Below are positions 3,191 through 24,096 of a stretch of 64,000 nt of DNA, in pieces. Numbering within the stretch: position 1 is the stretch's first letter; the number at the start of each line of letters is the position of its first letter. Where the stretch lies: NCBI GenBank assembly GCA_964508365.1, contig CAZDTP010000004.1, forward strand, positions 1,681 through 65,680, given 5' to 3'. Source of the stretch: an uncultured archaeon (GTDB lineage Archaea > Asgardarchaeota > Lokiarchaeia > Sigyniarchaeales > SOKP01). The notes under the pieces are model-generated. The model was not told where the DNA came from and ran no database searches. It was given only the letters and a program-made list of their open reading frames with translations. The position numbers and the translations under genes were made by a program.

Positions 3191-3379
3191 ATGATTGATA
3201 GCTGGCTTTCTAAGACGAAATTTAAAGACATGTATGAGAAATTTGTGAGGAAATTTTTTCTCGGTAAAGTTTCTGCCAATCAACTTACTATAATCGGGCT
3301 AATTTTTGGACTCATAGGCTCGTTTTTAATATATCTTAATTTGATAAATGGGAAATTATTTTTCTTTTCTATTCTCTAG
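3191..3379 (+). pseudogene. N-terminal fragment of a CDP-alcohol phosphatidyltransferase-like protein
   Basis: VSANQLTIIGLIFGLIG resembles the family's first TM (PNxLT); ORF stops inside the 3' end of the convergent gene before any DGxxAR motif. Confidence 0.55.
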
Positions 3380-5477
3380 AGCTTAAGTACTCTAAAGCTT
3401 TCTTTATATCGTTTGTAGGTGTTTTACAAGTTTTGTTAATGCATACATACGCAGTAGCTTTTCCCTCGTATTTATCAAAAAATTGAATATAATTGGAAAG
3501 ATTATCAATTTCTGGATTCAATTTTTCCGTAGGACGAAAAATTAACGATTTATTTGGTAAAAAATGTTTTCTAACCTCATCTAACATGGAATTCGTATCA
3601 TCTTTTCCCTCATCCCCTGCGATGACTAATGAATATGTTGGACCTATGGCATAATCCACAGCAACCATCATTAAACTATGCGCGACAGGATTAGCTCTGA
3701 CGCTTTCGGCAAAAACCCGTCCAAGATGATCTGCTTTCTTCTCATAAGTATCGTTACCAGTTAATTGTGCTAACCTTAGTAAATTTAGCATCGCAACAGA
3801 ATTCCCCGATGGAATTGCTCCGTCATAAGTCTCTTTTTGGCGCGTTAGTAACGATTCTGCGTCTTCAGCCGTAAAAAAGTATGCTCCAATTGAGGAATCC
3901 CAAAATAATTTTAACTGTTCCTCTGTCAACTTTATAGCTTTTTCAAGATATCGTGTTTCAAAAGATGCTTCATAAAGGTTGATTAACCCCCAAACTAAGA
4001 ACGCATAATCGTCTAAAAAAGCGAGTATGTCTGCACCACCCTTACGATAACGATGTAAAAGTCTTCCCTCAGAATTTTTTATTTGGTTTAGGATAAAATC
4101 TACTGCTTTTTCTGCGACCTGAATATGTTTAGGCTCGTTAAAAATATATCCTGCCTTAGCAAACGCTGCGATCATCAATCCATTCCAGTCAGTTAATACT
4201 TTGTCGTCCTTATGAGGCTTAATTCTTTTCTCTCTTGCTTCAAATAATTTGTTCCTAATTAATTCAATATCGATCGTGGGGGTATCTGATAAATAGGATT
4301 TTAAGTGAATGATGTTTTTTCCAGTTTTACTTTTAGTCGCTTCATCGAAAAAATTCCCATTTATATCAATATTATAAAGTTTTGAAAATACTTCAGCTTC
4401 TTCTACTCCTAATATTTCTTCGATTTCGCCTTTCGACCAAACATAAAATTTACCTTCTTCTCCTTCACTATCAGCATCTTCTGCGCTATAGAAGGCTCCA
4501 TCTGGGGAAGTCATATCGCGCAAAACATATGCCAATACTTCCTTTGCGGTATTAGCATATTCCTCTTTATTCGTTGCTTGATACGCATCTAAATAAGCAA
4601 GAATCAATAAGGCTTGATCGTATAACATTTTTTCAAAATGAGGTACAAGCCAGTTAGGATCGGTTGAGTAACGATGAAATCCGAAGCCAATATGATCGTA
4701 GATTCCACCCATTCGCATAGCTTTAAGCGTCTTTTCAACCATTTTAAGTGCTCCCTCGTCACCAGTTCTTCTCCAGAATCTTAATAAGAACAATAAATTG
4801 TGTGGTGTGGGGAATTTTGGTGCCGTTCCAAAACCTCCGTTCTGTTTATCGAATCTTCCCGATAATTGAGAATGCGTGTTTTTTAAGACGCTTTCAGCTA
4901 GACTTCTTCCCGGGGATTCAGAGTTTGCATCTCGTAAGGTAAAAGTTATCTTTTCGCTCGATTCTACTAATTGATTTCTTTCGTTCTTCCATAGATCTTT
5001 AACTCGTTTTATTAAATCAACTAAACCAATTCTTCCAAATCGGCTTTCTTTCGGAAAATACATTCCAGCAAAAAAGGGTTTTTTATCTGGAGTCATGATA
5101 ATTGTTAGTGGCCAACCCCCAGAACCGGTCATAAGTTGGCAGACGGTCATATAGATTTTATCTATGTCAGGTCGTTCTTCTCTATCAACTTTAATTGAAA
5201 TGAATGATTCGTTCAACAATTCCGCAACATATGGGTCTTCAAACGATTCGTGAGCCATTACATGACACCAATGGCATGTGGAATACCCGATTGATAAGAA
5301 AATTGGCTTATCTTCAGATTTTGCCTTTTCAAAGGCTTCATCACCCCAAGCATACCATTCTACTGGATTGTTAGCGTGTTGAAGTAAATATGGACTTTTT
5401 TCAGTAATAAGCTTATTAGGTTTTTTAATACCTTCTGGCTTCTCTCTTGAAATATTACTATCGTTAATAATATCCAC
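3369..5477 (-). CDS. YyaL/SPATA20-like thioredoxin-domain + glycosidase-like (alpha/alpha)6 protein
   Basis: [70 protein letters not shown]. Confidence 0.92.
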
Positions 5478-5494
5478 CCTTTTTAGTAAGTTGA

Positions 5495-6052
5495 TTAGTC
5501 TTTAACTTTATCTATGTAGATAAATTCATCAATAGATTTCCTTGGGGGTCTCTGTTTTTCTCCGAGCTTCATTGGATCAGATAAAATCGGGTTAATTATT
5601 TCTGAATGCTTTCCAACAATTACAAGAGTAATTAATCTCATTTCATTTGAAATACTAAGAATTTCTTTAGCTAGAGTCTCATTAAAACCAGCTATAGGAT
5701 GGGCTACCAGACCTAATTCAGTAGCACGCAGGATTAAAAAAGCAGTGGCCATACCAGTATCAAACAAGTAATAGAGTCTTTCTCCAATCACACAATCTTT
5801 TTTAGGTTTACTGAAAACTCCTATAATCATTGACGCTTTTTCAGCCCACTTATTACCTTCTGATAACACAGCAAAAAGTTCGTTTAATACATTTTTATCA
5901 TGAACAAAAACAAATTTCCATGGTTGCATATTTGCGCAAGACGGGGTAATTCTAGCGATTTCTGCAAGATCCTCAATTAAATCCCTTGAAATTTCTATAG
6001 GATCTAAGGATCTATATGCTCTTCTTTTTTCTATAATCTCTTTAACGCTCAT
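5495..6052 (-). CDS. Nitroreductase family protein
   Basis: [16 protein letters not shown] and DTGMA motifs. Confidence 0.9.
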
Positions 6053-6061
6053 GGTGTCTTT

Positions 6062-6547
6062 TTAATTTCCTAACTCCTCTAAGATTTTCTGTACTTCTTC
6101 TGGATGTCCGTTCACAGAAACTTTAGGCCAAATATGTGCGATCTTTCCATCGGGATTTATTAAAAAGGTACTACGCGTAACTCCTATATATTCCTTACCT
6201 CTGAATGTGTTTTTACCCCATTTTCCATACGATTTTAAGACTTCTTTATCTAGATCGCTTAATAGAGTTACTTTTAAATTTTTCTTCTCTATGAATTTTG
6301 CGTGGGATTCAGGACTATCAGGGCTTATGCCAATAACATTCGCATTTAACTTTTGAAGTTCGGTTAAAATTCCCGTAAAACCTATTGCTTCAGTAGTACA
6401 ACCTGGCGTATTATCTTTAGGATAAAAGTAGACGATGACGTACTTACCTTTAAATTCCTTAAGACATACCTTCTTATTATCTTTGTCTGGTAGGCAAAAC
6501 TCGGGAGCAGTATCTCCAACCTTTAATTCAACTTTTTTAACTGTCAT
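6062..6547 (-). CDS. bcp: Peroxiredoxin, Bcp/PrxQ type
   Basis: YFYPKDNTPGCTTEA, RSTFLINPDG; start placed at MTVKKVELKVGD (6547) rather than the track start 6619. Confidence 0.92.
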   Translation of the reverse strand: MTVKKVELKVGDTAPEFCLPDKDNKKVCLKEFKGKYVIVYFYPKDNTPGCTTEAIGFTGILTELQKLNANVIGISPDSPESHAKFIEKKNLKVTLLSDLDKEVLKSYGKWGKNTFRGKEYIGVTRSTFLINPDGKIAHIWPKVSVNGHPEEVQKILEELGN

Positions 6548-6774
6548 TATAATTTTCTCCTTAAAAATTTTGGATTTTATTCGTGTTTCAATTATAAAAT
6601 CATTTGAATAGAATATCAATATTCAGATTATTAACTATAAAAGGAACAAAAATCTTCTGTTAATTATTACCATTAGAAATTTCAAATATTAATAAAATAT
6701 AAAAAATTAGAAAAAAAGTTAAAAATTTTATTTAAGGATCGTTCCTAAATGGATTGCATCGTCACAATTCGTAA

Positions 6775-7909: not shown

Positions 7910-9040
7910 TTAAATTCTCTTTTCTAAACTCTTTTTAACCACACAATATACTTTTCTTCTCTCGCCAATTCCAAAACACGCATTACAATTAGTACATAAT
8001 GCAGGTGTAAGATCTCCATCTTTCCATCGATTAGGTAAATCAGGTTCATATATGAGAGGGCGACACATAGAAATAAAATTTGCTATTTCTTCCGCCAGAA
8101 ATTTATCTGCGGATAAAGGGTTTCTTATTCCCCCCATAAAAATTAATGAACAATCTTTCATTACTCGCTTAATAGCCTTAGCATTTGGTAAATAATAGTT
8201 TTCATCTTCAGTTGAACTAAAATTCACACTTGGATATGATTTTTTGTTGGTTGCTTTTAGATTTGTTCGGCCAGATGTAGGTTCAATAGCATCAAAACCT
8301 AAATCTACTAAATATTTAGCTATCTCTACTCCCTCTCTTAAAGTTAATCCCTTTCCTTCTCCTAAAAAATCTTGAGTACTCAATTTAATGGTAATTGGAA
8401 ATTCGGTTCCTAAATTATCTCTTATTTGATTAAAAATATCAATAATAATTTTTAATCTATTAAGAGTTGTACCTCCATATTCATCAATCCGCTTATTAGT
8501 GAAAGGAGAGATGAAGTCACTCAGGAGATAGCCATGACCAGCATGTAGTTGTATCATATCATAGCCGCACTCATAAACCCTGGAGCTTGCTTCAATAAAT
8601 TTTTTTGTTATTTTTTTAATTTCTTCATTTTTCAATTCACGACAAATTTTTTTTGTTATAGGATCTTTTATTGGTGATGGTCCCACTGTTTCTCGATTAC
8701 GACTAATAACATTATTCCCAGTGTGTGCTAATTGAGCTGCTACTTTAACATCTGAATATTCATGAATAGATTTTACCAATTTTTTTTGTCCAAGAATATA
8801 AGAATCATCATAGATTCGAGTCATTCGAGTGGTTTGGGCACCTATTGGATCAACAGCAATATATCCTGTAATTATTAATCCCGTCCCGCCCTTAGCTAAC
8901 TCCTCATAAAAATCAATAAGTGAATCAGTTACATAGCCATCCTTAGTTGCTCTTGATTCCCAAGTTGCTGAACGAACTATGCGATTTTTAATTGATACGG
9001 TACCAATTTTCCCGGGTTTAAAGAGATATTTTAATTCCAT
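7910..9040 (-). CDS. NADH:flavin oxidoreductase (Old Yellow Enzyme family)
   Basis: KNRIVRSAT, QLAH, QLHAGHGYL, NKRIDEYGG; SD AGGAGGTGA (9046-9054) supports the start at 9040. Confidence 0.92.
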   Translation of the reverse strand: MELKYLFKPGKIGTVSIKNRIVRSATWESRATKDGYVTDSLIDFYEELAKGGTGLIITGYIAVDPIGAQTTRMTRIYDDSYILGQKKLVKSIHEYSDVKVAAQLAHTGNNVISRNRETVGPSPIKDPITKKICRELKNEEIKKITKKFIEASSRVYECGYDMIQLHAGHGYLLSDFISPFTNKRIDEYGGTTLNRLKIIIDIFNQIRDNLGTEFPITIKLSTQDFLGEGKGLTLREGVEIAKYLVDLGFDAIEPTSGRTNLKATNKKSYPSVNFSSTEDENYYLPNAKAIKRVMKDCSLIFMGGIRNPLSADKFLAEEIANFISMCRPLIYEPDLPNRWKDGDLTPALCTNCNACFGIGERRKVYCVVKKSLEKRI

Positions 9041-9056
9041 AATTATCACCTCCTAA

Positions 9057-10547
9057 TTAAGGATCGTTTCTAAAGGGGTGCCGTGCGCTTTCAGCATTTT
9101 CGATTCCATCATCTACCGTCGGTAGCCCTTCCATCGCCTTTCTAATTGCATTTCTAGTAGCTTTATAATTATTTATAAAAACTCGTTTTCGAGCGCTCGC
9201 ACTTGGGTGTACAAATACATTTACGACAATTACAATATCTTCTGCGGCTTCCTTAGGGAGGATTCCATCTTCTACGCACTTCATTACAGCTTTAGCCACT
9301 GCCGCTTGAGCAGGACCATAAGTTAAACTTGCGTGTCGTAGAGAAGTAACTTTAACTGTAGGTATCATAATAGTAGCTGGTTTAACCTGCATGTTTGGTT
9401 CAAGAATAACCTGCAGTCCTTCACGACCTTTAGCTGGATGAGTCAATGCTCGTGCGTAAGCGTCCCCTACGGGTCCATCTTTGTTTCCTATCAACAAGTC
9501 AATATGTGCTAATTCGGCTCTATTCCCAACAAGCGATTCCCCAACTTTCAACCTAAAATCTGATATTTTTTCAGGGGTTACTCCCACTGCGTAAAATCGA
9601 CTCGTAAGTTCTTTCTCACCAATCTCAAATTTGATTTCTTTCTTTTCTATTAATCCAAGTTTTTCTAACTCAACTCGAAATTCGTCCTGTAACTCATACG
9701 AAAGAGCATCTCCTAAAATAATAGGTCGTCTGGTTGTGCCTACTGGAATTCCCATCATGTTTAAGCACTCTTTAGCTCCTAATGCTCCAGAATTAATTAG
9801 CATGCGTGCTAATTTTTGCACCTTTTTTTGAAGAGTCTGAGCTTCTTGTAAACGGTTGTTTTTCACATGGTCATAAATTTCAAGCCATACTTTAGGTATG
9901 ACATTAGCAGAACCAAGTATACAACCTGCAGCGCCACCCGCTAAAGCTCCTAATACATTTTCGTCCCAGCCAATCAAAACAGAGATTTTATCGCTAACTT
10001 TCTCTAGTAAAGCTGAAAAATACTTGTAATCACCACTAGAATCTTTTATGGCTACGAAATTTTCGATATCAACTAGATCTTCTACAACTGTCCAAGGCAA
10101 TTCCACACCAGTACAAGGGGGAATATTATACAACACTAACGGAATGTCTGTTTTTTCCGCTATCGTAAAATAATGATCGTATAATCCTTTTGCTTTAGGT
10201 TTTAAATAGTATGGTGTTACTACTATAGCAGCATCAGCCCCGATATCTGTGGCAGCTTTAGTAGCATCTATTACCATTTTTGTACCGGTCTCCCCTGTTC
10301 CAGCAATCACTGGAATTCTTCCGTTCGTTTCGTCTACTACTATTTCAATGACTCTCAAACGTTCTTCGAACGTCATGTTGACGAACTCTCCGGTCGTTCC
10401 TACTGGTACGAGTCCCGTAACTCCTTGTTCTATGAGATAATTTACTAAATTTCTAAGATTCTCTTCGTTTATTGTCTCGTCATCTTTATTGAAAGGAGTC
10501 ACCAAAGCAGGCATAACTCCTGTTGGTCTAAAATCAAATTTTCCCAT
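9057..10547 (-). CDS. fae: Fusion: DapA-like class I aldolase (N) + formaldehyde-activating enzyme Fae (C)
   Basis: N-domain GTTGEF, TPYY, YNIP, AIKDS (Schiff-base Lys); C-domain VGESLVG..ELAHIDLLIG.KDGPVG, KPATI, GPAQAAVAKAV, VFVHP, NYKAT; one continuous ORF. Confidence 0.9.
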   Translation of the reverse strand: MGKFDFRPTGVMPALVTPFNKDDETINEENLRNLVNYLIEQGVTGLVPVGTTGEFVNMTFEERLRVIEIVVDETNGRIPVIAGTGETGTKMVIDATKAATDIGADAAIVVTPYYLKPKAKGLYDHYFTIAEKTDIPLVLYNIPPCTGVELPWTVVEDLVDIENFVAIKDSSGDYKYFSALLEKVSDKISVLIGWDENVLGALAGGAAGCILGSANVIPKVWLEIYDHVKNNRLQEAQTLQKKVQKLARMLINSGALGAKECLNMMGIPVGTTRRPIILGDALSYELQDEFRVELEKLGLIEKKEIKFEIGEKELTSRFYAVGVTPEKISDFRLKVGESLVGNRAELAHIDLLIGNKDGPVGDAYARALTHPAKGREGLQVILEPNMQVKPATIMIPTVKVTSLRHASLTYGPAQAAVAKAVMKCVEDGILPKEAAEDIVIVVNVFVHPSASARKRVFINNYKATRNAIRKAMEGLPTVDDGIENAESARHPFRNDP

Positions 10548-10572
10548 TTTAATTTAACCTCTTTATTTATTA

Positions 10573-11853
10573 CTAGTAGTGTAGATTTTTAGCAGCTAAA
10601 AACGCTAGTCCGTTTTCAGTTAGAGCTTTAGCTGTTGAATTAACGGCGTCATTTCGATCTATATGATTAATTCGTAATGCATCCCAAAGTCCTGCTTCTT
10701 TAATTTCTTCTTTAGTCATGAAATATTCAAGGATATCTGAAGGATGTTCTCGTTTTTCATCAACTTCAACATTTGCTCCTTCATGTTTAGCACTAACATT
10801 CTTTACTTTACGTGCTAGTTCAAGTAACTCATCCCTTCGGTCGTATGGTTGTCTTACAATCGATTTCCAAGTTTCAGTAATGTGATGCTCAAGCCTTACA
10901 ACATCTTCGAATCCAAACGGTTTTCTTATATACGCTGCCATTTCAAGGGTTTCATTATTAACTGAATTAGCTAAATTAAAACCGATCAATGGACTTGTAC
11001 CATCCTCCCGTGCAAACAATTTAGCGGTTAATAAAGTCCAAAGACAAGAATATGGGTTATCGTTGCCCATATATACACTTATTTTAAATTCGTTGTTAAT
11101 ACCAAGTTTATGGATAAAATACCCTAATAAAACAGTGCCAGGATTTACATTAAGAACTTGTTTAATGCCGTAGTTAGTATAATAGTAAAGAAACTCGTCG
11201 ATCCATTTCAACGCAAAATCGTTTGGTTGTCCAACACCTCCAAAATATCCAGTAATCGTATCAGGACCTCCAAGATGTACGTTTATAGGCATTCCATCTG
11301 GACCTGGTGCCGTACCCTTTGTATCAAGAGTTTCAACCCAAGAAGATCCAATAACTTGCATTGCAGCAGCCATCGCTAATAGATCGCCATCTTCTTCTTG
11401 TTCCTTCATATTTCTTACGCGGATAATCCTTCCAGGGACTAATTTCTGATTTTCAATAGCATCCTTTATAATATCGATAAAAAACGGAAAATATTGGCAT
11501 GCCGAGAGCTCCAGTGTAACAGCAAAATCCTCGTTGAATGTCATTTCAGATGCTTTATCGCCTAAAATCTTTTTCCGATAATCTGCTACGCTTATAAAAG
11601 CCTGTTTATCCCGCTGGGAAATCAACCATTCGAGATTCTTTACATAATCTGAATTCTTTTTTTCCAATTGTGCTAATAGAGTCTCTAATTTACTCGCTTC
11701 TTCTGCTTTTTTATTAATCTCTTCTACTCCCCCATATTTATCTACGATTGTTAAGAGATCATTTACTAACGGATTTTTATCATCAAGGAGAAAATCATTT
11801 ATAACCTTTAACGCAGTGTCTGGAATTTTCAATTTTTTTCTAATGTCTTTCAT
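10573..11853 (-). CDS. Hypothetical 426-aa soluble protein, first gene of the dapA-fae operon
   Basis: Long ORF, co-oriented and 25 nt from the next gene; no family recognised. Confidence 0.8.
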   Translation of the reverse strand: MKDIRKKLKIPDTALKVINDFLLDDKNPLVNDLLTIVDKYGGVEEINKKAEEASKLETLLAQLEKKNSDYVKNLEWLISQRDKQAFISVADYRKKILGDKASEMTFNEDFAVTLELSACQYFPFFIDIIKDAIENQKLVPGRIIRVRNMKEQEEDGDLLAMAAAMQVIGSSWVETLDTKGTAPGPDGMPINVHLGGPDTITGYFGGVGQPNDFALKWIDEFLYYYTNYGIKQVLNVNPGTVLLGYFIHKLGINNEFKISVYMGNDNPYSCLWTLLTAKLFAREDGTSPLIGFNLANSVNNETLEMAAYIRKPFGFEDVVRLEHHITETWKSIVRQPYDRRDELLELARKVKNVSAKHEGANVEVDEKREHPSDILEYFMTKEEIKEAGLWDALRINHIDRNDAVNSTAKALTENGLAFLAAKNLHY

Positions 11854-16364: not shown

Positions 16365-17201
16365 TTAACCAAAAAGAATTTGCTTAATTTTTGTAATTCT
16401 ATCGTTTCGAGATAGACGCTTGGTTAGTGGGTTATGATCTCCATATAATCCTTCATGATATACCGGTCTTTGGGTCTTATAGAAAACACCTAAAGTATAC
16501 CTATGTTTATTTTTAGCCGTTTTCATTGCTTCCTCATAAGTTTCAGGTAATTTTTCAAGAAATTCTACTTTTTCTCGATACTCGTTCCAGGAATGATAGG
16601 GAACGGCAGGTTGTAATACTTCGATAAAAGAGAAACCTTTATGCTCGATCGCTTGAATTAAGACATCTGTGAGATGAGTAATTTCTCCAGCAAATGTTCT
16701 GGCAATAAAAGTTGCTCCAACTTCTAGCATTAACGATATAGCGTTAAATGGTGTTTCAAAACTTCCTCCAGGAGTAGAAGGTCCTTTCCATCCCTTCTCT
16801 GTCAAAGGAGAATACTGGCCAGTGGTTAATGCATACACGCTATTATTATGCAATATCATGGTGATATCCTGATTTCTTTTGGCTGCGAATATTGTATGAG
16901 CTAAACCTTCACCTAATCCGTTTCCGTCTCCAGAAAAAGTTATAATTTTTAAATCGGGATTTGCTATTTTCATCCCTTCAGCATTCGAGCTATTTCGTCC
17001 GTGCAGCCCATAAAGTCCGCTTAAATTGAGATAATCAAAGATTTTTGCGTGACACCCAATACCCGCAGTAATTACAATATCTTTTCTATTGATTCCTTTT
17101 GCTTCCAGCTTTGGAATAGCGTTTCTTAAAGCGGTAAAAATACCAAAATTCCCACAACCAGGACACCAAGTAATTTCGGCGTTAGTTTTAAGATTTTCCA
17201 T
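16365..17201 (-). CDS. korB: 2-oxoacid:ferredoxin oxidoreductase beta subunit
   Basis: TWCPGCGNFG, GIGC, LHGR, GDGNG..EG, NNSVYALTTGQYSP; start at MENLKT. Confidence 0.92.
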   Translation of the reverse strand: MENLKTNAEITWCPGCGNFGIFTALRNAIPKLEAKGINRKDIVITAGIGCHAKIFDYLNLSGLYGLHGRNSSNAEGMKIANPDLKIITFSGDGNGLGEGLAHTIFAAKRNQDITMILHNNSVYALTTGQYSPLTEKGWKGPSTPGGSFETPFNAISLMLEVGATFIARTFAGEITHLTDVLIQAIEHKGFSFIEVLQPAVPYHSWNEYREKVEFLEKLPETYEEAMKTAKNKHRYTLGVFYKTQRPVYHEGLYGDHNPLTKRLSRNDRITKIKQILFG

Positions 17202-17202
17202 A

Positions 17203-18864
17203 TTATTCCAACTCCTCCTTAATTTTAATTGAAAGCTCAATTGGATCAAAGGGACGACCGTCGTATCTTTTAATCACGCTTCTAATGTTTAATCCCCCCT
17301 TCTCTTTAAGAAGAGATGCAAATTGTCCCGTGACGCTTTGTTCAATAACTATATTGTCTTGATTTATAAATTCTTCTAATTCCCAAATAGGTAAGGGGCT
17401 CAAATAAATCGGCTGAACAATTGTCGGATTTAATCCACCATACTTAAGAGCTTCTAGTAGGCTCATATAAGTGGAACCATAAGTAAAAATATTAGTAGGG
17501 TGCTCTCCTCTAATGATGTTAACTGTATTTTGTGTTTTTAAATGTTCGATAAGTTTCCGTAGTTTTTTATTCCTTTTATCATGCATTTTCGCTATCATTT
17601 CAGCGCTCTCAGTTGTAATTCCATTCTCATCGTGTTCGTAACTATTCCATTTTATTACCTCTTTAGAAGGTGGAAAAAGCATTGGCGAAATTCCATCATC
17701 AGTGTCAAGGTATCTTTTATAATCCCCTCTTGTATACAATTTTGGTTCTGCCCATTTCGCATTATCAATGTTTAGGTTAATAGTCATACTATTCTCGGAT
17801 AAATGTTTTTCGGTTAGAAGGATAGCGGGTGTTTGAAACTTCCAAACGAGATCTAACAATTCAGCCGTTAAGGAGTAAGCCTCTTCTATCGTTCCGGGAG
17901 ATGCTACAATTCGCAAAAAATCACCATGACCTGCGGATAGAGCAAAATTTAAGTCAGCTTGTTCGGTATAAGTAGGAACTCCAGTAGCAGGTCCAGGACG
18001 CATAGACAATACACATAAGATGGGTGTTTCTGTTATACCCGCTAATGAGATGCCTTCGGTCATAAGTGCGAAACCTCCACCACTAGTACCAACCATAGAT
18101 CTCGCTCCAGTAAAAGAGGAACCAATAGCCATGTTAATTACTGCAAGTTCGCTTTCGGCATGAACAACTGCTAAACCAAAATTTTCAGCTTGTTTAGCTA
18201 AGAAGTGTAATATAGAAGAAGCAGGCGTCATTGGATATCCATAATATGTATCTAACCCGCCAGCGATAGCCCCGAGGCTTATTGCCTCGTTTCCCGTAAT
18301 TATTGGTCTATTTTTTACTCCTCTTTCTAACGGGTATTTATTTTGACATCCGTCTTTTACCATATCATATATAGTATCTGCAAATTTGATATTATTTTCG
18401 ATACCACTTGGATATTGGTTTTTGATATTTTGGTTCATTTGTTCTTTGTTCATTCCTATTGTCGAAGATAATATAGCTACGGCCCCTACACCATACATTA
18501 ATTTCTTCATAGGATACTTTTCAGCTTCTGAACTTAACGGGATGCCAATTCCATCAGCATTTTCTTGTTCGTCTGAATTAAAAATGACAATACCACTCTT
18601 AGTAACATCGTTAATGTGATTATCACTACTTCTCTTATCAAAATTGACCACAAGATTCGCTTTTATATATTGACTCGTGATCCTACTAGAGGACGTGCTT
18701 ACAACAGAAAAATTATGACCGCCCCTTATTAAACTCATGTAATCGTCCATTTGGAACACTTGCCTTCCCAAACTTGAAAAGATATGAGCTGCTACTGATC
18801 CTGCTTTCTTTACACCTTCTCCAGCTTTACCTCCAACAAGAAACGTAAATAAATCATGAACCAT
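17203..18864 (-). CDS. korA: 2-oxoacid:ferredoxin oxidoreductase alpha subunit (gamma-alpha fused)
   Basis: GGKAGEG, IRGGHN, YPMTPAS, ESELA, TSGGGFALM, RPGPATGVPT; start placed at MVHDLF. Confidence 0.92.
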   Translation of the reverse strand: MVHDLFTFLVGGKAGEGVKKAGSVAAHIFSSLGRQVFQMDDYMSLIRGGHNFSVVSTSSSRITSQYIKANLVVNFDKRSSDNHINDVTKSGIVIFNSDEQENADGIGIPLSSEAEKYPMKKLMYGVGAVAILSSTIGMNKEQMNQNIKNQYPSGIENNIKFADTIYDMVKDGCQNKYPLERGVKNRPIITGNEAISLGAIAGGLDTYYGYPMTPASSILHFLAKQAENFGLAVVHAESELAVINMAIGSSFTGARSMVGTSGGGFALMTEGISLAGITETPILCVLSMRPGPATGVPTYTEQADLNFALSAGHGDFLRIVASPGTIEEAYSLTAELLDLVWKFQTPAILLTEKHLSENSMTINLNIDNAKWAEPKLYTRGDYKRYLDTDDGISPMLFPPSKEVIKWNSYEHDENGITTESAEMIAKMHDKRNKKLRKLIEHLKTQNTVNIIRGEHPTNIFTYGSTYMSLLEALKYGGLNPTIVQPIYLSPLPIWELEEFINQDNIVIEQSVTGQFASLLKEKGGLNIRSVIKRYDGRPFDPIELSIKIKEELE

Positions 18865-18985
18865 TGATTTTAAACCTCTATTTTTTAAATTAATTCTTGA
18901 ATTAACCCTAAAATATTTAAACATATGGTTTATAACATAAAAAACATTTTTTGTTTATGAAAAAAAAAGGACATTAATTAGCTTT

Positions 18986-19858: not shown

Positions 19859-20569
19859 ATGTCATTTCCTAAAATATCCAGAACAATTACAAAAGAAATG
19901 GAAAATATTAAAGTTCAGTTTCTTACTGAAAATTTAGAACTTATTTTAAATCGAGAGAAATGCGTTGGATGCGGAACTTGCGCTCGGGTGTGCCCCAAGG
20001 ATGCAATCTCTCGTGGACCAGTAGGAGCCTCACGAAGATTTCCCACAAGGGAAGATATTATACCAGAGCTCTATGATCCAAAGCTTTGTGTCTTCTGTGG
20101 AACTTGTGTTTATTGCTGTCCTTTTGGAGCATTAACCATGAAAAAAGATGGCGAAATTATCAATTTAACCGATATCCCACTCGTAGCCCAAAAGGTAATG
20201 CCCACTCTAGAGTTTGAAACTAAAAAATTATTGAATGATAGAATCGCAAAACAATGGGTTAAAGCAAAGGTGAAAATTATTGATGAAGAATGCGCAAAAG
20301 GATGCGGTTCCTGTGCTGAAGTTTGTCCATCAGGTTCGATTGAAATTGCTAAAAGAGCCGAACATGGTTGGGAAATGTCGAAAAATGTAGAGGTTGTCGA
20401 TGAGGATGCGTGTGTAGCGTGTGGAGCATGTGATAACGCATGCCCAACAGGAGCACTAATTCTCGAGATAACCGATGTTCATACTTCGGGAGAATTTGAA
20501 GAACGCTATTGGCTACCCTTATTAGAAAGATTGAAAACCTTAAGATGGAGTAAAAAAGAGGAGGCATGA
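19859..20569 (+). CDS. fwdF: Polyferredoxin, FwdF-like (four CxxCxxCxxxCP-type motifs)
   Basis: Four ferredoxin motifs; fwd context. Confidence 0.75.
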   Translation: MSFPKISRTITKEMENIKVQFLTENLELILNREKCVGCGTCARVCPKDAISRGPVGASRRFPTREDIIPELYDPKLCVFCGTCVYCCPFGALTMKKDGEIINLTDIPLVAQKVMPTLEFETKKLLNDRIAKQWVKAKVKIIDEECAKGCGSCAEVCPSGSIEIAKRAEHGWEMSKNVEVVDEDACVACGACDNACPTGALILEITDVHTSGEFEERYWLPLLERLKTLRWSKKEEA

Positions 20570-20967
20570 AAATGAGTTTAAATAACTTAATTCTTTTAAC
20601 TGGGCGAACTATTAGTCAAGGAGTAGCTCTTGAAGGAGGAAAAGCATCAAGAGAGAATGTTCGAGCTGCAGGTATCTGCACATTTGATGCTGATGATTTT
20701 AAAAAGCTTGATTGTCTCGTTGGAACTCCAGTTAAAGTCATAACAGATTACGGTGAGGTAGTGGTTTATTCAACAATTACTGAAGAAGGACCTCATCCAG
20801 GTATAATATTTATACCGATGGGACCCTGGGCAAATCAACTCGTAAATCCTAGTTCTCAAGCATGTGGCACTCCACAATATAAGGGAATGAAATCTAAAGT
20901 TGAAGTTGTAAAAAACGGAAAAGTTCTAGGTGCTATAGAATTAATAGGAAGATTAAAGGAAGCTTAA
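20566..20967 (+). CDS. fwdD: Formylmethanofuran dehydrogenase subunit D
   Basis: LLTGRTISQG, GIIFIPMGPWAN, GTPQYKG. Confidence 0.92.
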   Translation: MKMSLNNLILLTGRTISQGVALEGGKASRENVRAAGICTFDADDFKKLDCLVGTPVKVITDYGEVVVYSTITEEGPHPGIIFIPMGPWANQLVNPSSQACGTPQYKGMKSKVEVVKNGKVLGAIELIGRLKEA

Positions 20968-20980
20968 AGAAGTGAATAAT

Positions 20981-22306
20981 ATGGTAGAAAAAGTAAGAAC
21001 AGTAAAAGATGTATGCTGTCCGTTTTGTGGAACTTTATGTGATGACCTCGAAATCGATGTAGATCTAAAAACAGATGTTGTTGTAGAAGTAAGAAACGGT
21101 TGCCAGATTGGCACCAAGAAATATTTTTCATCGAATCCGAGCGATCATCGTTATACTAAACCATTAATCAAAGAAAATGGGGAACACAAAGAAGTTTCTT
21201 GGGAGGAAGCATTAGATAAAGCTGCAGATATACTGGTAAACGCACAACGACCTTTACTTTACGGTTTTTCTAGCACTGAATGTGAAGCTCAGAGCAAAGG
21301 CGTTGTTTTAGCCGAGATGCTAAACGCTATTTTAGACAATACCGCTTCTGTTTGTCACGGTCCAAGTTTATTAGCGATTCAAGATGTTGGCGCTTCACTT
21401 GCAACTTTAGGAGAAATCAAAAACCGAGCAGATACTATTATTTTTTGGGGATCTAACCCAGTTCATGCTCATCCAAGGCATTTAAGTCGCTACAGTGATT
21501 TTATTAGAGGATATTTTAGAACTGACGGTAGAAATGATAGATATATTATAGTTGTTGACCCAAGAAATACTCATACAGCTCAAGTTGCGGATAAATTCAT
21601 TCAAATTAATCCTAGCGAAGATTACGAATTGATCCAAGCAATCAGGGCAGTTTTAAGAGGAAGCGAATTAGATGTAAAAGAAGTATCTGGTGTCTCTATA
21701 GATGATATTAAAGAATTGGTCGAAAAGTTAAAATCAAGTAATTTTGGTGTAATTTTCTTTGGTATGGGCTTAACTCAGACCTCAGCACATCACCGCAATA
21801 TAGACACAGCAATACGCTTAGTCACAGAATTAAATGACTATACGAAATTTATTCTAATTCCTATGCGTGGGCATTATAATGTTACCGGAGCTAATCAAGT
21901 TTTTGCTTGGAATACAGGTTATGCATATTCAATTGATTTTTCTCGAGGATATCCTCGTTATAATCCAGGAGAATTTTCTTCCGTAGATCTTCTAATGCGG
22001 GACGAAGTTGATGCTGCTTTAATCGTAGCTTCAGACCCAGGGAGTAATTTTCCGGCAGCAGCGGTTAAAAATCTATTTAAACATCCTCTAATTGCAATCG
22101 AACCACATAAAACACCAACTTCTGCATTTGCTGATGTCGTATTACCCGCAGCTATCGCTGGAATTGAATGCGAAGGAACCGCTTATCGTATGGATACAGT
22201 ACCATTAAGGTTAAGGAAAGTGAAAGATGCACCAGGAGAATGTTTGTCTGATAAAGAGATTTTGGAGAGATTAATCGAAAAAGTTAAAGAGAAGTTGGGT
22301 GAGTAA
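20981..22306 (+). CDS. fwdB: Formylmethanofuran dehydrogenase subunit B (Cys form)
   Basis: CPFCGTLCDDL, TASVCHGPS (Cys ligand, not Sec), HPRHLSRYS, PMRGHYNV, GTAYRMD. Confidence 0.95.
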   Translation: MVEKVRTVKDVCCPFCGTLCDDLEIDVDLKTDVVVEVRNGCQIGTKKYFSSNPSDHRYTKPLIKENGEHKEVSWEEALDKAADILVNAQRPLLYGFSSTECEAQSKGVVLAEMLNAILDNTASVCHGPSLLAIQDVGASLATLGEIKNRADTIIFWGSNPVHAHPRHLSRYSDFIRGYFRTDGRNDRYIIVVDPRNTHTAQVADKFIQINPSEDYELIQAIRAVLRGSELDVKEVSGVSIDDIKELVEKLKSSNFGVIFFGMGLTQTSAHHRNIDTAIRLVTELNDYTKFILIPMRGHYNVTGANQVFAWNTGYAYSIDFSRGYPRYNPGEFSSVDLLMRDEVDAALIVASDPGSNFPAAAVKNLFKHPLIAIEPHKTPTSAFADVVLPAAIAGIECEGTAYRMDTVPLRLRKVKDAPGECLSDKEILERLIEKVKEKLGE

Positions 22307-22309
22307 AGC

Positions 22310-23119
22310 ATGGCGGAAATTAAATTAAAAATAAAAAAGAAACTAACTTTCCCATTAGAAGCAGATAGTATTACTCCTGATAATTTTGTGGGTAAAACAG
22401 CAGCTGATATTAAGAAATTACCTTTATTTTACGCAACAAAGCAAGTAACTATTGGTGATTTTTTTGATGTAACTGGTAAATCTACAGATGTAGCTAATAC
22501 TAAGATAATTATTGATGGCGATGTATCTAACGTAAAACGAATCGGGGAAAACATGACAGGTGGCGAAATAGTTATTAATAGTGATGTCGGAATGCATATT
22601 GGAAATCACATGTCAGGGGGGAAAATTACGGTTAATGGGAATGCTGACGATTGGGCAGGTGCTATGCTTCAAGGAGGGGAACTCGAAATTACTGGCGACG
22701 CGGGACATTATGTTGGATCAGCTTACAGAGGTTACTGGCAAGGTATGAAGAATGGCACGATAAAAGTCAAAGGAAAGGTAGGAGTAGAATCAATGTTATG
22801 GGCGAAGAGTTCTAAACCCTCAAACATGTGGCCAACCTTATATTGTGGAAGCGCCGATGCGTTCTTAGGTATTCATAATCATGGTGGAACGATAGTTGTT
22901 GAAGGAGATGTTGACCGATGTGCAGGCGCGGACCAAGCATGGGGAAGTATTGTGATTAAAGGAAAGGCCTCAAGACTCTTACCTTCTTATAAGAAAGTTG
23001 GTGAAGTTAATGAAGTTCAACTCCCTAATGGTGAAGTGATTAAGGGAAAATTTATTGAATATAGCGGGGATCACACAATTACGAAAGAAACTAAAGGTAG
23101 ATTATATCTAGCTGCTTAA
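22310..23119 (+). CDS. fwdC: Formylmethanofuran dehydrogenase subunit C
   Basis: Gly-rich GXGXG beta-solenoid repeats (GENMTGGEI, GNHMSGGKI, GAMLQGGEL, GSAYRG). Confidence 0.92.
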   Translation: MAEIKLKIKKKLTFPLEADSITPDNFVGKTAADIKKLPLFYATKQVTIGDFFDVTGKSTDVANTKIIIDGDVSNVKRIGENMTGGEIVINSDVGMHIGNHMSGGKITVNGNADDWAGAMLQGGELEITGDAGHYVGSAYRGYWQGMKNGTIKVKGKVGVESMLWAKSSKPSNMWPTLYCGSADAFLGIHNHGGTIVVEGDVDRCAGADQAWGSIVIKGKASRLLPSYKKVGEVNEVQLPNGEVIKGKFIEYSGDHTITKETKGRLYLAA

Positions 23120-23289
23120 TTCTTTTTTCAAAGTTATAATTTATCGAATAACTTTAGATAATAAAACTTCAATATTTTTTGTACTTGAACCTTGATTTAT
23201 ATTGAATAAAAGATGGTTTTATTGGTTATGAAATCAATATTTTATTAAGAAACCCTAATTTTCCTCCCCAGAAAGAATAGGATCGAAAC

Positions 23290-24096
23290 ATGTATCAGAG
23301 AAAAGTCAATATAACTAAAATCCACAAGGATGTCAAAAAAGAAGAAATAGATTTAGTTCTAATAGAGAGTCCAATTGATATCGTTGTAAATTCGGAACCT
23401 TTGGTAAATATTATTTGTTTGGATAAAGATTTAAAAGAGCTTACTATAGGGTTTTTGTTTTCTATTGGAATTATTAATAACATTGAAGATATATCTATAA
23501 TTAAGATTGATCAATTAGAAGGAAAAGTTTATGTTGAGCTTGAAAAATCCATAGATAACTCTAAAATTTTGGAAATGAATCCAGTTAGCAGGATCATTGA
23601 TACTACCTGTGGAATCCCTTCTCCTTGGCGTAATTTGATTAAAGATAAATTAGAGGAAGTAAAAAATTCCGTTCATTCGAAAGAAAGCATTACTCTGGAC
23701 GCTGATATTATATTTTCTGCGATGACTAAAATGCAAAAAGAAACTCCACTGTTTAAAGAAACGGGTGGGTGTCATGGGGCTGCTATATTCGATCTAGAAG
23801 GAAACCTTGTCACCGCTAGCGAAGATATTGGAAGACATAACGCTATAGATAAAGTGATTGGTGCCTTACTTTTAAAGAAGGAACCATTCAATAATAAAAT
23901 CTTAACCTCGACTGGTCGCTTGACAGGTGATTCAGTTTTGAAAGCGGTGAGGGCGCAGATCCCTATTGTAGCATCACTTTCAGCCGCTATTGAATCAGGT
24001 ATAAGATTAGCATTTTCTTATGGGATTACATTAATCGGTTTTGCTCGAGGCAAGAGAATGAACATCTATACAAACCCAAACAGAATAAAGATTTAA
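23290..24096 (+). CDS. fdhD: Formate dehydrogenase accessory sulfurtransferase
   Basis: TTCG, TGGCHGAA, EDIGRHNAIDKVIG, TGRL, SAAIESG, GFARG. Confidence 0.93.
   Translation: MYQRKVNITKIHKDVKKEEIDLVLIESPIDIVVNSEPLVNIICLDKDLKELTIGFLFSIGIINNIEDISIIKIDQLEGKVYVELEKSIDNSKILEMNPVSRIIDTTCGIPSPWRNLIKDKLEEVKNSVHSKESITLDADIIFSAMTKMQKETPLFKETGGCHGAAIFDLEGNLVTASEDIGRHNAIDKVIGALLLKKEPFNNKILTSTGRLTGDSVLKAVRAQIPIVASLSAAIESGIRLAFSYGITLIGFARGKRMNIYTNPNRIKI

Follow-up and report, generated by a model that had tools for sequence, protein, structure and literature searches.

The aldolase-Fae fusion gene

The window analysed here is a 64,000-nucleotide stretch of contig CAZDTP010000004.1 (positions 1,681 to 65,680, forward strand; assembly GCA_964508365.1) from an uncultured Asgard archaeon of the Lokiarchaeia (Sigyniarchaeales; SOKP01). 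Its minus strand carries, at 9057-10547, a single uninterrupted open reading frame (ORF) of 496 amino acids with an ATG start, in which an aldolase of the dihydrodipicolinate synthase (DHDPS, or DapA) family is joined to a formaldehyde-activating enzyme (Fae). An earlier reading made from the letters alone (hereafter, the sequence-only reading) had described an intact class I aldolase fused to a complete Fae, and the ORF, the Pfam and NCBIfam matches, the motifs, and the full-length orthologues found across the phylum all bear this description out. The class I (Schiff-base) aldolase domain spans residues 8-277 (9717-10526; PF00701, E 2.2e-76), and the Fae domain spans residues 335-492 (9072-9545; PF08714, E 8.9e-58), scoring 195.2 bits against a cut-off of 27 and covering positions 1-158 of the 159 in the model. 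Between the two Pfam envelopes lie the C-terminal helices of the aldolase and a linker (residues 278-334; 9546-9716), which are alignable among fusions. Of the NCBIfam models, one_C_fae (TIGR03126) matches with 192.8 bits (cut-off 118) and dapA (TIGR00674) with 236.7 bits (cut-off 206.15); the latter is an equivalog model, and passing its cut-off explains the DapA name that these proteins carry in databases.

The catalytic residues of both halves are conserved, with the motifs, as read directly, at residues 50-54 (GTTGE), 112-114 (PYY), 140-147 (YNIPPCTG), 167-172 (IKDSSG), and 347-354 (AHIDLLIG). The fusions fall into two types. Those of type a, including this gene, carry GTTGE, YN, KDSSG, and a full Fae (AH(I/V)D, VFVHP, and a C-terminal ARHPF), and those of type b keep the aldolase residues, with a Fae that has lost its His and is shortened at the C terminus; b and a stand in tandem in several Asgard families, Bathyarchaeia, and Chloroflexota. 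In the aldolase half, the Thr-Thr pair of GTTGE (Thr51-Thr52; 10392-10397), which in DHDPS binds the keto-acid carboxylate, belongs to a motif whose T52, G53, and E54 are invariant in type-a fusions, position 51 being Ser in a few. Tyr140 of YNIP, the catalytic Tyr of the family (10128-10130, codon read directly), is invariant, and so, in type-a fusions, is the predicted Schiff-base lysine, Lys168 of IKDSSG (10044-10046), which aligns with the Lys of GIKDATG in solved DHDPS. In the Fae half, A347, H348, D350, H490, and P491 are invariant among 37 type-a fusions, such that the AHxD and ARHP motifs, presumably catalytic, are intact; His348 of AHID (9504-9506) is the residue that the type-b paralogues have lost. 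Two metagenome proteins have the Schiff-base Lys replaced by A or L (P0249 and P0250), and in P0250, where the Fae is intact and GTTGE and the Tyr are lost as well, the aldolase half looks dead.

The residues that would hold the aldehyde substrate of DHDPS are different. Where DHDPS grips the carboxylate of aspartate semialdehyde with an Arg (R138 in Escherichia coli), the fusion has Cys145 (codon TGT at 10113-10115, within YNIPPCTG); HMMER alignments place this Cys opposite the Arg of YNVPGRTG or YNVPSRTA in solved DHDPS, where the sequence-only reading had put it. The special weight that was then given to the Cys does not survive a motif table of 45 sequences, in which the fusions carry C, V, L, or A at this position and never R: relatives with V, L, or A make the Cys no conserved catalytic novelty, only one way of removing the substrate clamp. 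Further, the GDD of DHDPS reads GWDE in HMMER alignments to solved structures, with Trp194 of IGWDEN (9966-9968) standing where DHDPS has the first Asp. GHDE is found there in most fusions and GWDE in the Loki type, and the Trp (or His) in place of Asp is a second change in the aldehyde pocket, beside the lost Arg.

A predicted paralogue of the lysine-pathway enzyme

A separate, canonical dapA, which the sequence-only reading had proposed looking for, is present in the same assembly. On contig C24, a DHDPS gene with the motif YNVPSRTG scores 338.3 bits on the dapA model and adjoins a dapB-like gene, which leaves the fusion copy free for another job. In a FastTree phylogeny of 41 fusion aldolase domains, 61 unfused DHDPS representatives, and this genome's canonical DapA, the fusion domains form one clade (SH-like support 92-96), with the canonical DapA of the same genome placed elsewhere; two nominally unfused rows fall inside the fusion clade, and both look like fragments. 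DapA/DHDPS proteins are the closest sequence relatives of the aldolase half (E 1e-54 to solved DHDPS), which retains their Thr-Thr, Tyr, and Lys; the fusion differs from them in having Cys for Arg, GWDE for GDD, a clade of its own, and a fused Fae. By its residues and its place in the tree, the fusion aldolase is best described as a paralogue, and not as the DapA of the lysine pathway.

The least probable of the functions that we weighed, and in our view a very improbable one, is that of an ordinary second DapA carrying an uncoupled housekeeping Fae that detoxifies formaldehyde from the hexulose-phosphate synthase (Hps) pathway: the TIGR00674 cut-off is passed, no second Fae was detected in this assembly, and Hps genes occur in stand-alone form, but the Arg is gone in every member, the clade lies apart from DapA, nearly all relatives in the family carry a normal 427-amino-acid Fae-Hps whether or not they have the fusion, and the fusion is kept over three phyla with a fixed partner. 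The genes that neighbour Fae-Hps in relatives are found in this assembly at the very end of contig C21 (1-393) and on the 4.1-kb contig C113. With one neighbour at a contig end and the other on a small contig, an assembly gap probably accounts for the missing Fae-Hps.

Distribution of the fusion

The possibility that the fusion is an assembly or frameshift artefact is excluded by its recurrence: well over 100 genomes, each assembled independently, encode the same architecture at full length and with no internal stop. The distribution survey that the sequence-only reading had called for places the fusion in Asgard archaea, where most families of the phylum have it at full length without stops, in Bathyarchaeia, and in some Chloroflexota, with about a dozen fusion clusters at 50% clustering. 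Near-identical copies of the fusion and its partner gene also occur in public records under the names of Nanopelagicaceae or Anaerolineales bacteria (P0001, P0018, and P0198); with 94-96% identity to Asgard genes, the contigs in question were probably mis-binned.

Full-text searches found no paper with a title or abstract on a DHDPS-Fae fusion, and none of the papers searched contains both "dihydrodipicolinate synthase" and "formaldehyde-activating enzyme". All named sources label the fusion 4-hydroxy-tetrahydrodipicolinate synthase, a label that is wrong and that inflates the lysine-pathway calls made for Asgard archaea, Bathyarchaeia, and Chloroflexota. The fusion is a mis-annotated, widespread, and unstudied enzyme architecture.

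Two kinds of TIM-barrel partner gene

Directly upstream of the fusion lies a gene for a 426-amino-acid protein (10573-11853, minus strand), an obligate-looking partner that the sequence-only reading overlooked. The two genes are separated by a 25-nt spacer containing a ribosome-binding-like AGAGGT (10557-10562) 9 nt before the ATG of the fusion. In Asgard families f1, f2, and f29, the 426-amino-acid gene occupies this position in all 18 related loci checked; the protein is highly conserved, at 65-90% identity across the phylum, and, contig-end cuts aside, genomes of the family to which this archaeon belongs have both the fusion and the 426-amino-acid gene or neither. Elsewhere among the Asgard families, a protein of about 312 amino acids, also without a known family, takes this slot. 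The two proteins are complementary across Asgard families, each family with a full-length fusion having one of them, and in the 40 loci examined the fusion lies directly after, or head to head with, an uncharacterised TIM-barrel gene, the exception being five loci of one Asgard family.

AlphaFold2 (AF2) models show a TIM barrel in both partners (pLDDT 80.8 for the 426-amino-acid protein, in which it follows an N-terminal helical domain, and 88.4 for the 312-amino-acid protein). For the 426-amino-acid protein, Pfam searched at E up to 10 gave noise alone, NCBIfam gave no match, an ESM Atlas feature search gave nothing usable (best 0.87), its profile run against PDB sequences returned a nucleoporin at E 0.3 and nothing else, and fold searches with its model returned generic TIM barrels at Z of about 11. 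For the 312-amino-acid model, Foldseek ranked class II aldolases top (E 4e-9), and VIA-align ranked CutC (Z 15.0) above a class II aldolase (13.8) and a U32 peptidase (13.7), with RuBisCO-like proteins in the same range of about one Z unit; as the two methods differ on the top family, we assign the protein to no superfamily. The profiles of the two partners align in hhalign with E 5.7e-4 and 1.2e-3, and the proteins have four short motifs in the same order; together with the shared slot, this makes homology plausible. A complex prediction for the fusion with its 426-amino-acid partner scored 0.00, which we read as no verdict and as evidence neither way.

Within the pair, divergence is uneven. 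The fusion and partner of the window (9057-11853) are 97% and 85% identical, respectively, to those of one relative and 96% and 76% identical to those of another (L008 and L010), which hints at recombination within the pair.

Exchange with PanB in bacteria

A pattern scan for the 312-amino-acid gene, with one genome per species, yielded 553 confirmed stretches, and the gene context was read in the 80 best loci. Relatives occur in Asgard archaea, Bathyarchaeia, Chloroflexota, Bipolaricaulota/Acetothermia, Fraserbacteria, Acidobacteriota, and others, and among these best 80 of 553 loci the protein keeps 62-70% identity across domains. The DHDPS-Fae fusion lies beside the gene in 36 of the 80 (28 directly after it, 7 head to head, and 1 about 2 kb downstream), and it was likewise the next gene in three of three look-ups that started from the 312-amino-acid protein (in Chloroflexota, Bathyarchaeia, and a metagenome contig). 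In another 18 of the 80, all bacterial, the gene directly or almost directly after the 312-amino-acid gene belongs to the PanB family (PF02548, 379 bits; TIGR00222, 324 bits against a cut-off of 207). PanB is a methylene-tetrahydrofolate (methylene-THF):2-oxo-acid hydroxymethyltransferase, which adds a hydroxymethyl unit to C3 of a 2-oxo acid, and in 4 of the 18 PanB loci a formate-THF ligase gene lies directly upstream.

The PanB in this slot is a second copy: all five of the tested bacteria with a PanB-type slot have two PanB genes, and the PanBs that adjoin the 312-amino-acid gene form their own clade (SH-like support 96), apart from the other copies and from Asgard PanBs. Only two differences are fixed between the two clades, both Val to Leu/Ile and one of them located two positions ahead of the Glu in the L-L-E motif, which is too little to infer a substrate.

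The exchange of the fusion for PanB points to an aldol chemistry between a 2-oxo acid and a formaldehyde-level one-carbon (C1) unit carried on a pterin. The Asgard genome under study has C1 enzymes that work with tetrahydromethanopterin (H4MPT), namely Mch (352.8 bits), two Ftr genes, and the fwd genes of the window. Mch was detected in three of nine fusion-carrying Chloroflexota and in none of 11 bacteria without the fusion, the completeness of these genomes being unknown; the pattern is in line with a match between the enzyme and the carrier, and the correlation is imperfect.

Homoserine genes at the partner loci

The candidate C4 product is suggested by the company that the partner genes keep. 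In two Asgard families that have no fusion, the 426-amino-acid gene heads an operon with an AspAT-like aminotransferase, a homoserine dehydrogenase (PRK06270, 425 bits against 373), and an AOR; a PatB-type C-S lyase is also present in three of six such loci (L044, L046, L052, L054, L055, and L057). One of these Asgard genomes, a single contig that is 96% complete, has no detected aspartate kinase (Ask), aspartate semialdehyde (ASA) dehydrogenase (Asd), or DapA, and the AOR might there replace Ask and Asd by reducing aspartate to the semialdehyde. In a third Asgard family, the 426-amino-acid gene lies beside the S component of an ECF transporter, with a divergent threonine synthase also present in four of five loci. 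At the 312-amino-acid gene, a homoserine dehydrogenase (Hom) follows directly in two loci and lies two genes away in a third. Homoserine genes that recur at both partner genes fit 4-hydroxy-2-oxobutanoate (HOB): homoserine has HOB as its keto acid, and the aldol addition of formaldehyde to pyruvate yields the same compound.

Bacteria in which PanB takes the slot point the same way. In six of eight of them, small metagenome-assembled genomes (MAGs) of unknown completeness, Ask, Asd, Hom, and DapA were not detected; threonine synthase (ThrC) was above the cut-off in four of those six, and in two of these a ThrB-like kinase gene lies beside that of ThrC. With ThrC retained and no Ask, Asd, or Hom, these bacteria have no known source of homoserine, which speaks for a reaction that makes HOB and homoserine no less than for the catabolic cleavage. 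The six genomes (G320, G322, G323, G334, G335, and G336, with loci L091, L109, L120, L093, L099, and L100) are labelled Bipolaricaulota, Fraserbacteria, or Thermotogae, and the three of them tested for it (G320, G322, and G323) have two PanB genes each.

A proposed H4MPT-dependent hydroxymethyltransferase

On balance, we favor a reading in which the fusion would be an H4MPT-dependent hydroxymethyltransferase, a functional analogue of PanB that interconverts pyruvate plus methylene-H4MPT with HOB. The N-terminal domain would act as a Schiff-base 2-oxo-acid aldolase, derived from DapA and without the residues that hold aspartate semialdehyde, and the C-terminal Fae, predicted to be active, would interconvert formaldehyde plus H4MPT and methylene-H4MPT; such a pair is exactly what a PanB-type reaction with methylene-H4MPT would need. 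Jointly, a 2-oxo acid, methylene-H4MPT, and water would be interconverted with a 4-hydroxy-2-oxo acid and H4MPT, with formaldehyde presumably passed between the two sites. The 2-oxo acid would most likely be pyruvate and the product HOB, and the upstream TIM-barrel protein may act with the fusion as a unit, making or using the C4 product.

The sequence-only reading had envisaged the same chemistry, run as a cleavage that releases formaldehyde for capture by H4MPT. Its pyruvate/C1/HOB chemistry is probably right, given the PanB exchange and the homoserine contexts; the fixed catabolic direction is not supported, as bacteria with PanB that lack Ask, Asd, and Hom keep ThrC. We slightly prefer synthesis of HOB and homoserine from pyruvate and C1 over cleavage. 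PanB is reversible, and formaldehyde aldol addition and its capture by the pterin are both favorable; on these grounds, the reaction is probably close to equilibrium.

More tentatively, and with less confidence than we place in the enzyme activity itself, we propose that the module may belong to a natural, ATP-free route from pyruvate and carrier-bound C1 through HOB and homoserine to threonine and methionine. Its first step would be taken by the aldolase-Fae fusion in users of H4MPT (Asgard archaea, Bathyarchaeia, and some Chloroflexota) and by the second PanB in folate-using, Bipolaricaulota-like bacteria without aspartate kinase, ASA dehydrogenase, and homoserine dehydrogenase, and the TIM-barrel partner would supply a further dedicated step.

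Several observations weigh against the favored reading. First, the genome under study has the ordinary homoserine route (Ask in two copies, Asd, Hom, and ThrC), such that the module is not needed for homoserine there; the presence of Hom also led us to reject the idea that homoserine dehydrogenase is missing from this genome. Second, some genomes of the same genus lack the module despite being 98-100% complete, which suits an accessory, possibly catabolic, role. Third, Mch was not detected in six of the nine fusion-carrying Chloroflexota, and the unknown completeness of the MAGs limits what the missing homoserine genes can say. Fourth, the profile alignments are suggestive of homology between the 426- and 312-amino-acid proteins and support it weakly. 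Finally, the G(H/W)DE motif resembles the GxDE sugar-binding motif of sialic-acid lyases, and a larger hydroxylated aldehyde is thus a possible substrate.

Alternative functions

The strongest alternative, which we consider somewhat unlikely, is that the same reaction runs as a catabolic retro-aldol, in which the partner makes HOB from homoserine or another C4 compound and the fusion cleaves it to pyruvate and formaldehyde, the latter entering the Wood-Ljungdahl branch as methylene-H4MPT. The module behaves as an accessory one, patchy within one genus and spread over three phyla, in a genome that already has a standard homoserine pathway; AOR, which normally oxidizes aldehydes, accompanies the partner gene in the Asgard operons and in a Chloroflexota locus; and Fae normally runs towards methylene-H4MPT. 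PanB-type enzymes, in contrast, are normally synthetic, the bacteria with the PanB version keep ThrC without a standard source of homoserine, and no transporter or upstream catabolic gene is conserved beside the module.

An aldolase acting on a larger 2-keto-3-deoxy sugar acid, comparable to the aldolases of sialic acid or 2-keto-3-deoxygluconate (KDG), with a Fae that traps another aldehyde or is structural or regulatory, is improbable. G(H/W)DE and a hydrophobic YNIPxx do seem to resemble the N-acetylneuraminate lyase (NAL) subfamily, the NAL models reach 186 bits (below their cut-off), the fusion sits among sugar genes on one metagenome contig and at one Chloroflexota locus, and the type-b paralogues retain their aldolase residues with a degenerate Fae. 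The Fae of the gene studied here, however, is a complete one whose AHxD and ARHP motifs are invariant; no sugar gene is a conserved neighbour; and the enzyme that shares the slot is PanB, a C1 transferase.

Marginally less probable again is an H4MPT-dependent ketopantoate hydroxymethyltransferase for coenzyme A synthesis, which would convert alpha-ketoisovalerate and methylene-H4MPT to ketopantoate. The bacterial replacement is indeed a PanB-family protein and scores above the panB equivalog cut-off, but this genome has an ordinary PanB (332 bits), the bacteria have a second PanB in a separate clade besides the copy linked to the 312-amino-acid gene, the module is dispensable within the genus, and branched donors are rarely taken by class I aldolases. 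The related idea that the fusion is a missing ketopantoate hydroxymethyltransferase is weakened by the PanB that is present here and duplicated in the bacteria.

Relation to known systems and implications

Like PanB, the proposed hydroxymethyltransferase would move a hydroxymethyl unit from a methylene-pterin onto C3 of a 2-oxo acid; in folate-using bacteria, a PanB paralogue fills the slot of the fusion. The two have no relation in sequence or fold, and the fusion has no PanB profile match. PanB, an enolate enzyme that depends on a metal, works with methylene-THF in a single active site, whereas the fusion would split the work between a Schiff-base aldolase and a distinct Fae domain and would rely on H4MPT as its carrier.

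With Fae-Hps (NF009833), the fusion has in common a complete Fae joined to an aldolase-type enzyme that makes or uses formaldehyde, an arrangement that keeps free formaldehyde low. In the fusion, unlike Fae-Hps, the partner domain is a DHDPS-family aldolase and not an Hps of the orotidine monophosphate (OMP)-decarboxylase fold, the order is reversed with Fae at the C terminus, and the substrate would be a 2-oxo acid and not ribulose 5-phosphate. NF009833 matches the fusion only over model positions 2-161 of 392, its Fae half (160.5 bits against a cut-off of 274), with no Hps half. Fae-Hps itself is described as common in archaea in PMC11291895.

The closest counterpart of the proposed route is an engineered one. 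In the review PMC8879981, HOB appears as a non-native metabolite of an engineered homoserine cycle in E. coli, where an HOB aldolase (RhmA and others) and an HOB aminotransferase lead from pyruvate and formaldehyde through HOB and homoserine to threonine. The engineered system relies on a promiscuous side activity of a class II aldolase with free formaldehyde, whereas the fusion would be a dedicated natural enzyme coupled to a pterin carrier.

If the proposed reaction is correct, HOB would become a natural metabolite, and the fusion would be a new enzyme architecture that moves C1 between the archaeal pterin carrier and central carbon at pyruvate. The more tentative route, if it exists, would in addition be the natural counterpart of that engineered segment and would give Wood-Ljungdahl C1 units a new way out of their pool. 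The reaction would bear on how the Wood-Ljungdahl pathway is linked to amino acids in anaerobes of sediments where energy is limiting, among them the archaea most closely related to eukaryotes, and would provide a dedicated natural enzyme for synthetic methylotrophy.

Neighboring genes and other observations

Downstream of the fusion, 7 nt after its stop, the window has a gene for a flavin oxidoreductase of the Old Yellow Enzyme family (PF00724; 7910-9049, minus strand), whose translation probably begins at the ATG at 9040, preceded by a strong AGGAGGTG site. At all 16 related loci this gene is missing from the position, even at one that is 97% identical and where the membrane-protein gene follows directly; from this comparison its insertion looks recent. 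The idea that the flavin oxidoreductase reduces a dehydrated product to 2-oxobutanoate was rejected, given the absence of the gene there in all 16 related loci.

The sequence-only reading had also pointed to fwd genes 9 kb from the fusion. Fwd-type genes are indeed present at 19859-23119, and the suggested functional link is not supported, as they are not conserved neighbors of the fusion. They form part of a formylmethanofuran-dehydrogenase-like set on the plus strand (19859-24096; polyferredoxin, Molydop_binding, Molybdopterin, and GXGXG) that is accompanied by FdhD. On the minus strand, a two-subunit 2-oxoacid:ferredoxin oxidoreductase is encoded at 16365-18924, and genes for a thioredoxin-like DUF255 protein (702 amino acids), a nitroreductase, and a peroxiredoxin lie at 3369-6619; several genomes from the same family keep this last set downstream of the module.

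In seven Hermodarchaeota loci (L063, L064, L068, and similar), a pyridoxal phosphate (PLP)-dependent enzyme gene of the D-serine dehydratase/D-threonine aldolase type (Ala_racemase_N and D-ser_dehydrat) is divergent from the operon of the 312-amino-acid gene and the fusion, and a CitG-like gene lies on the other side of that operon.

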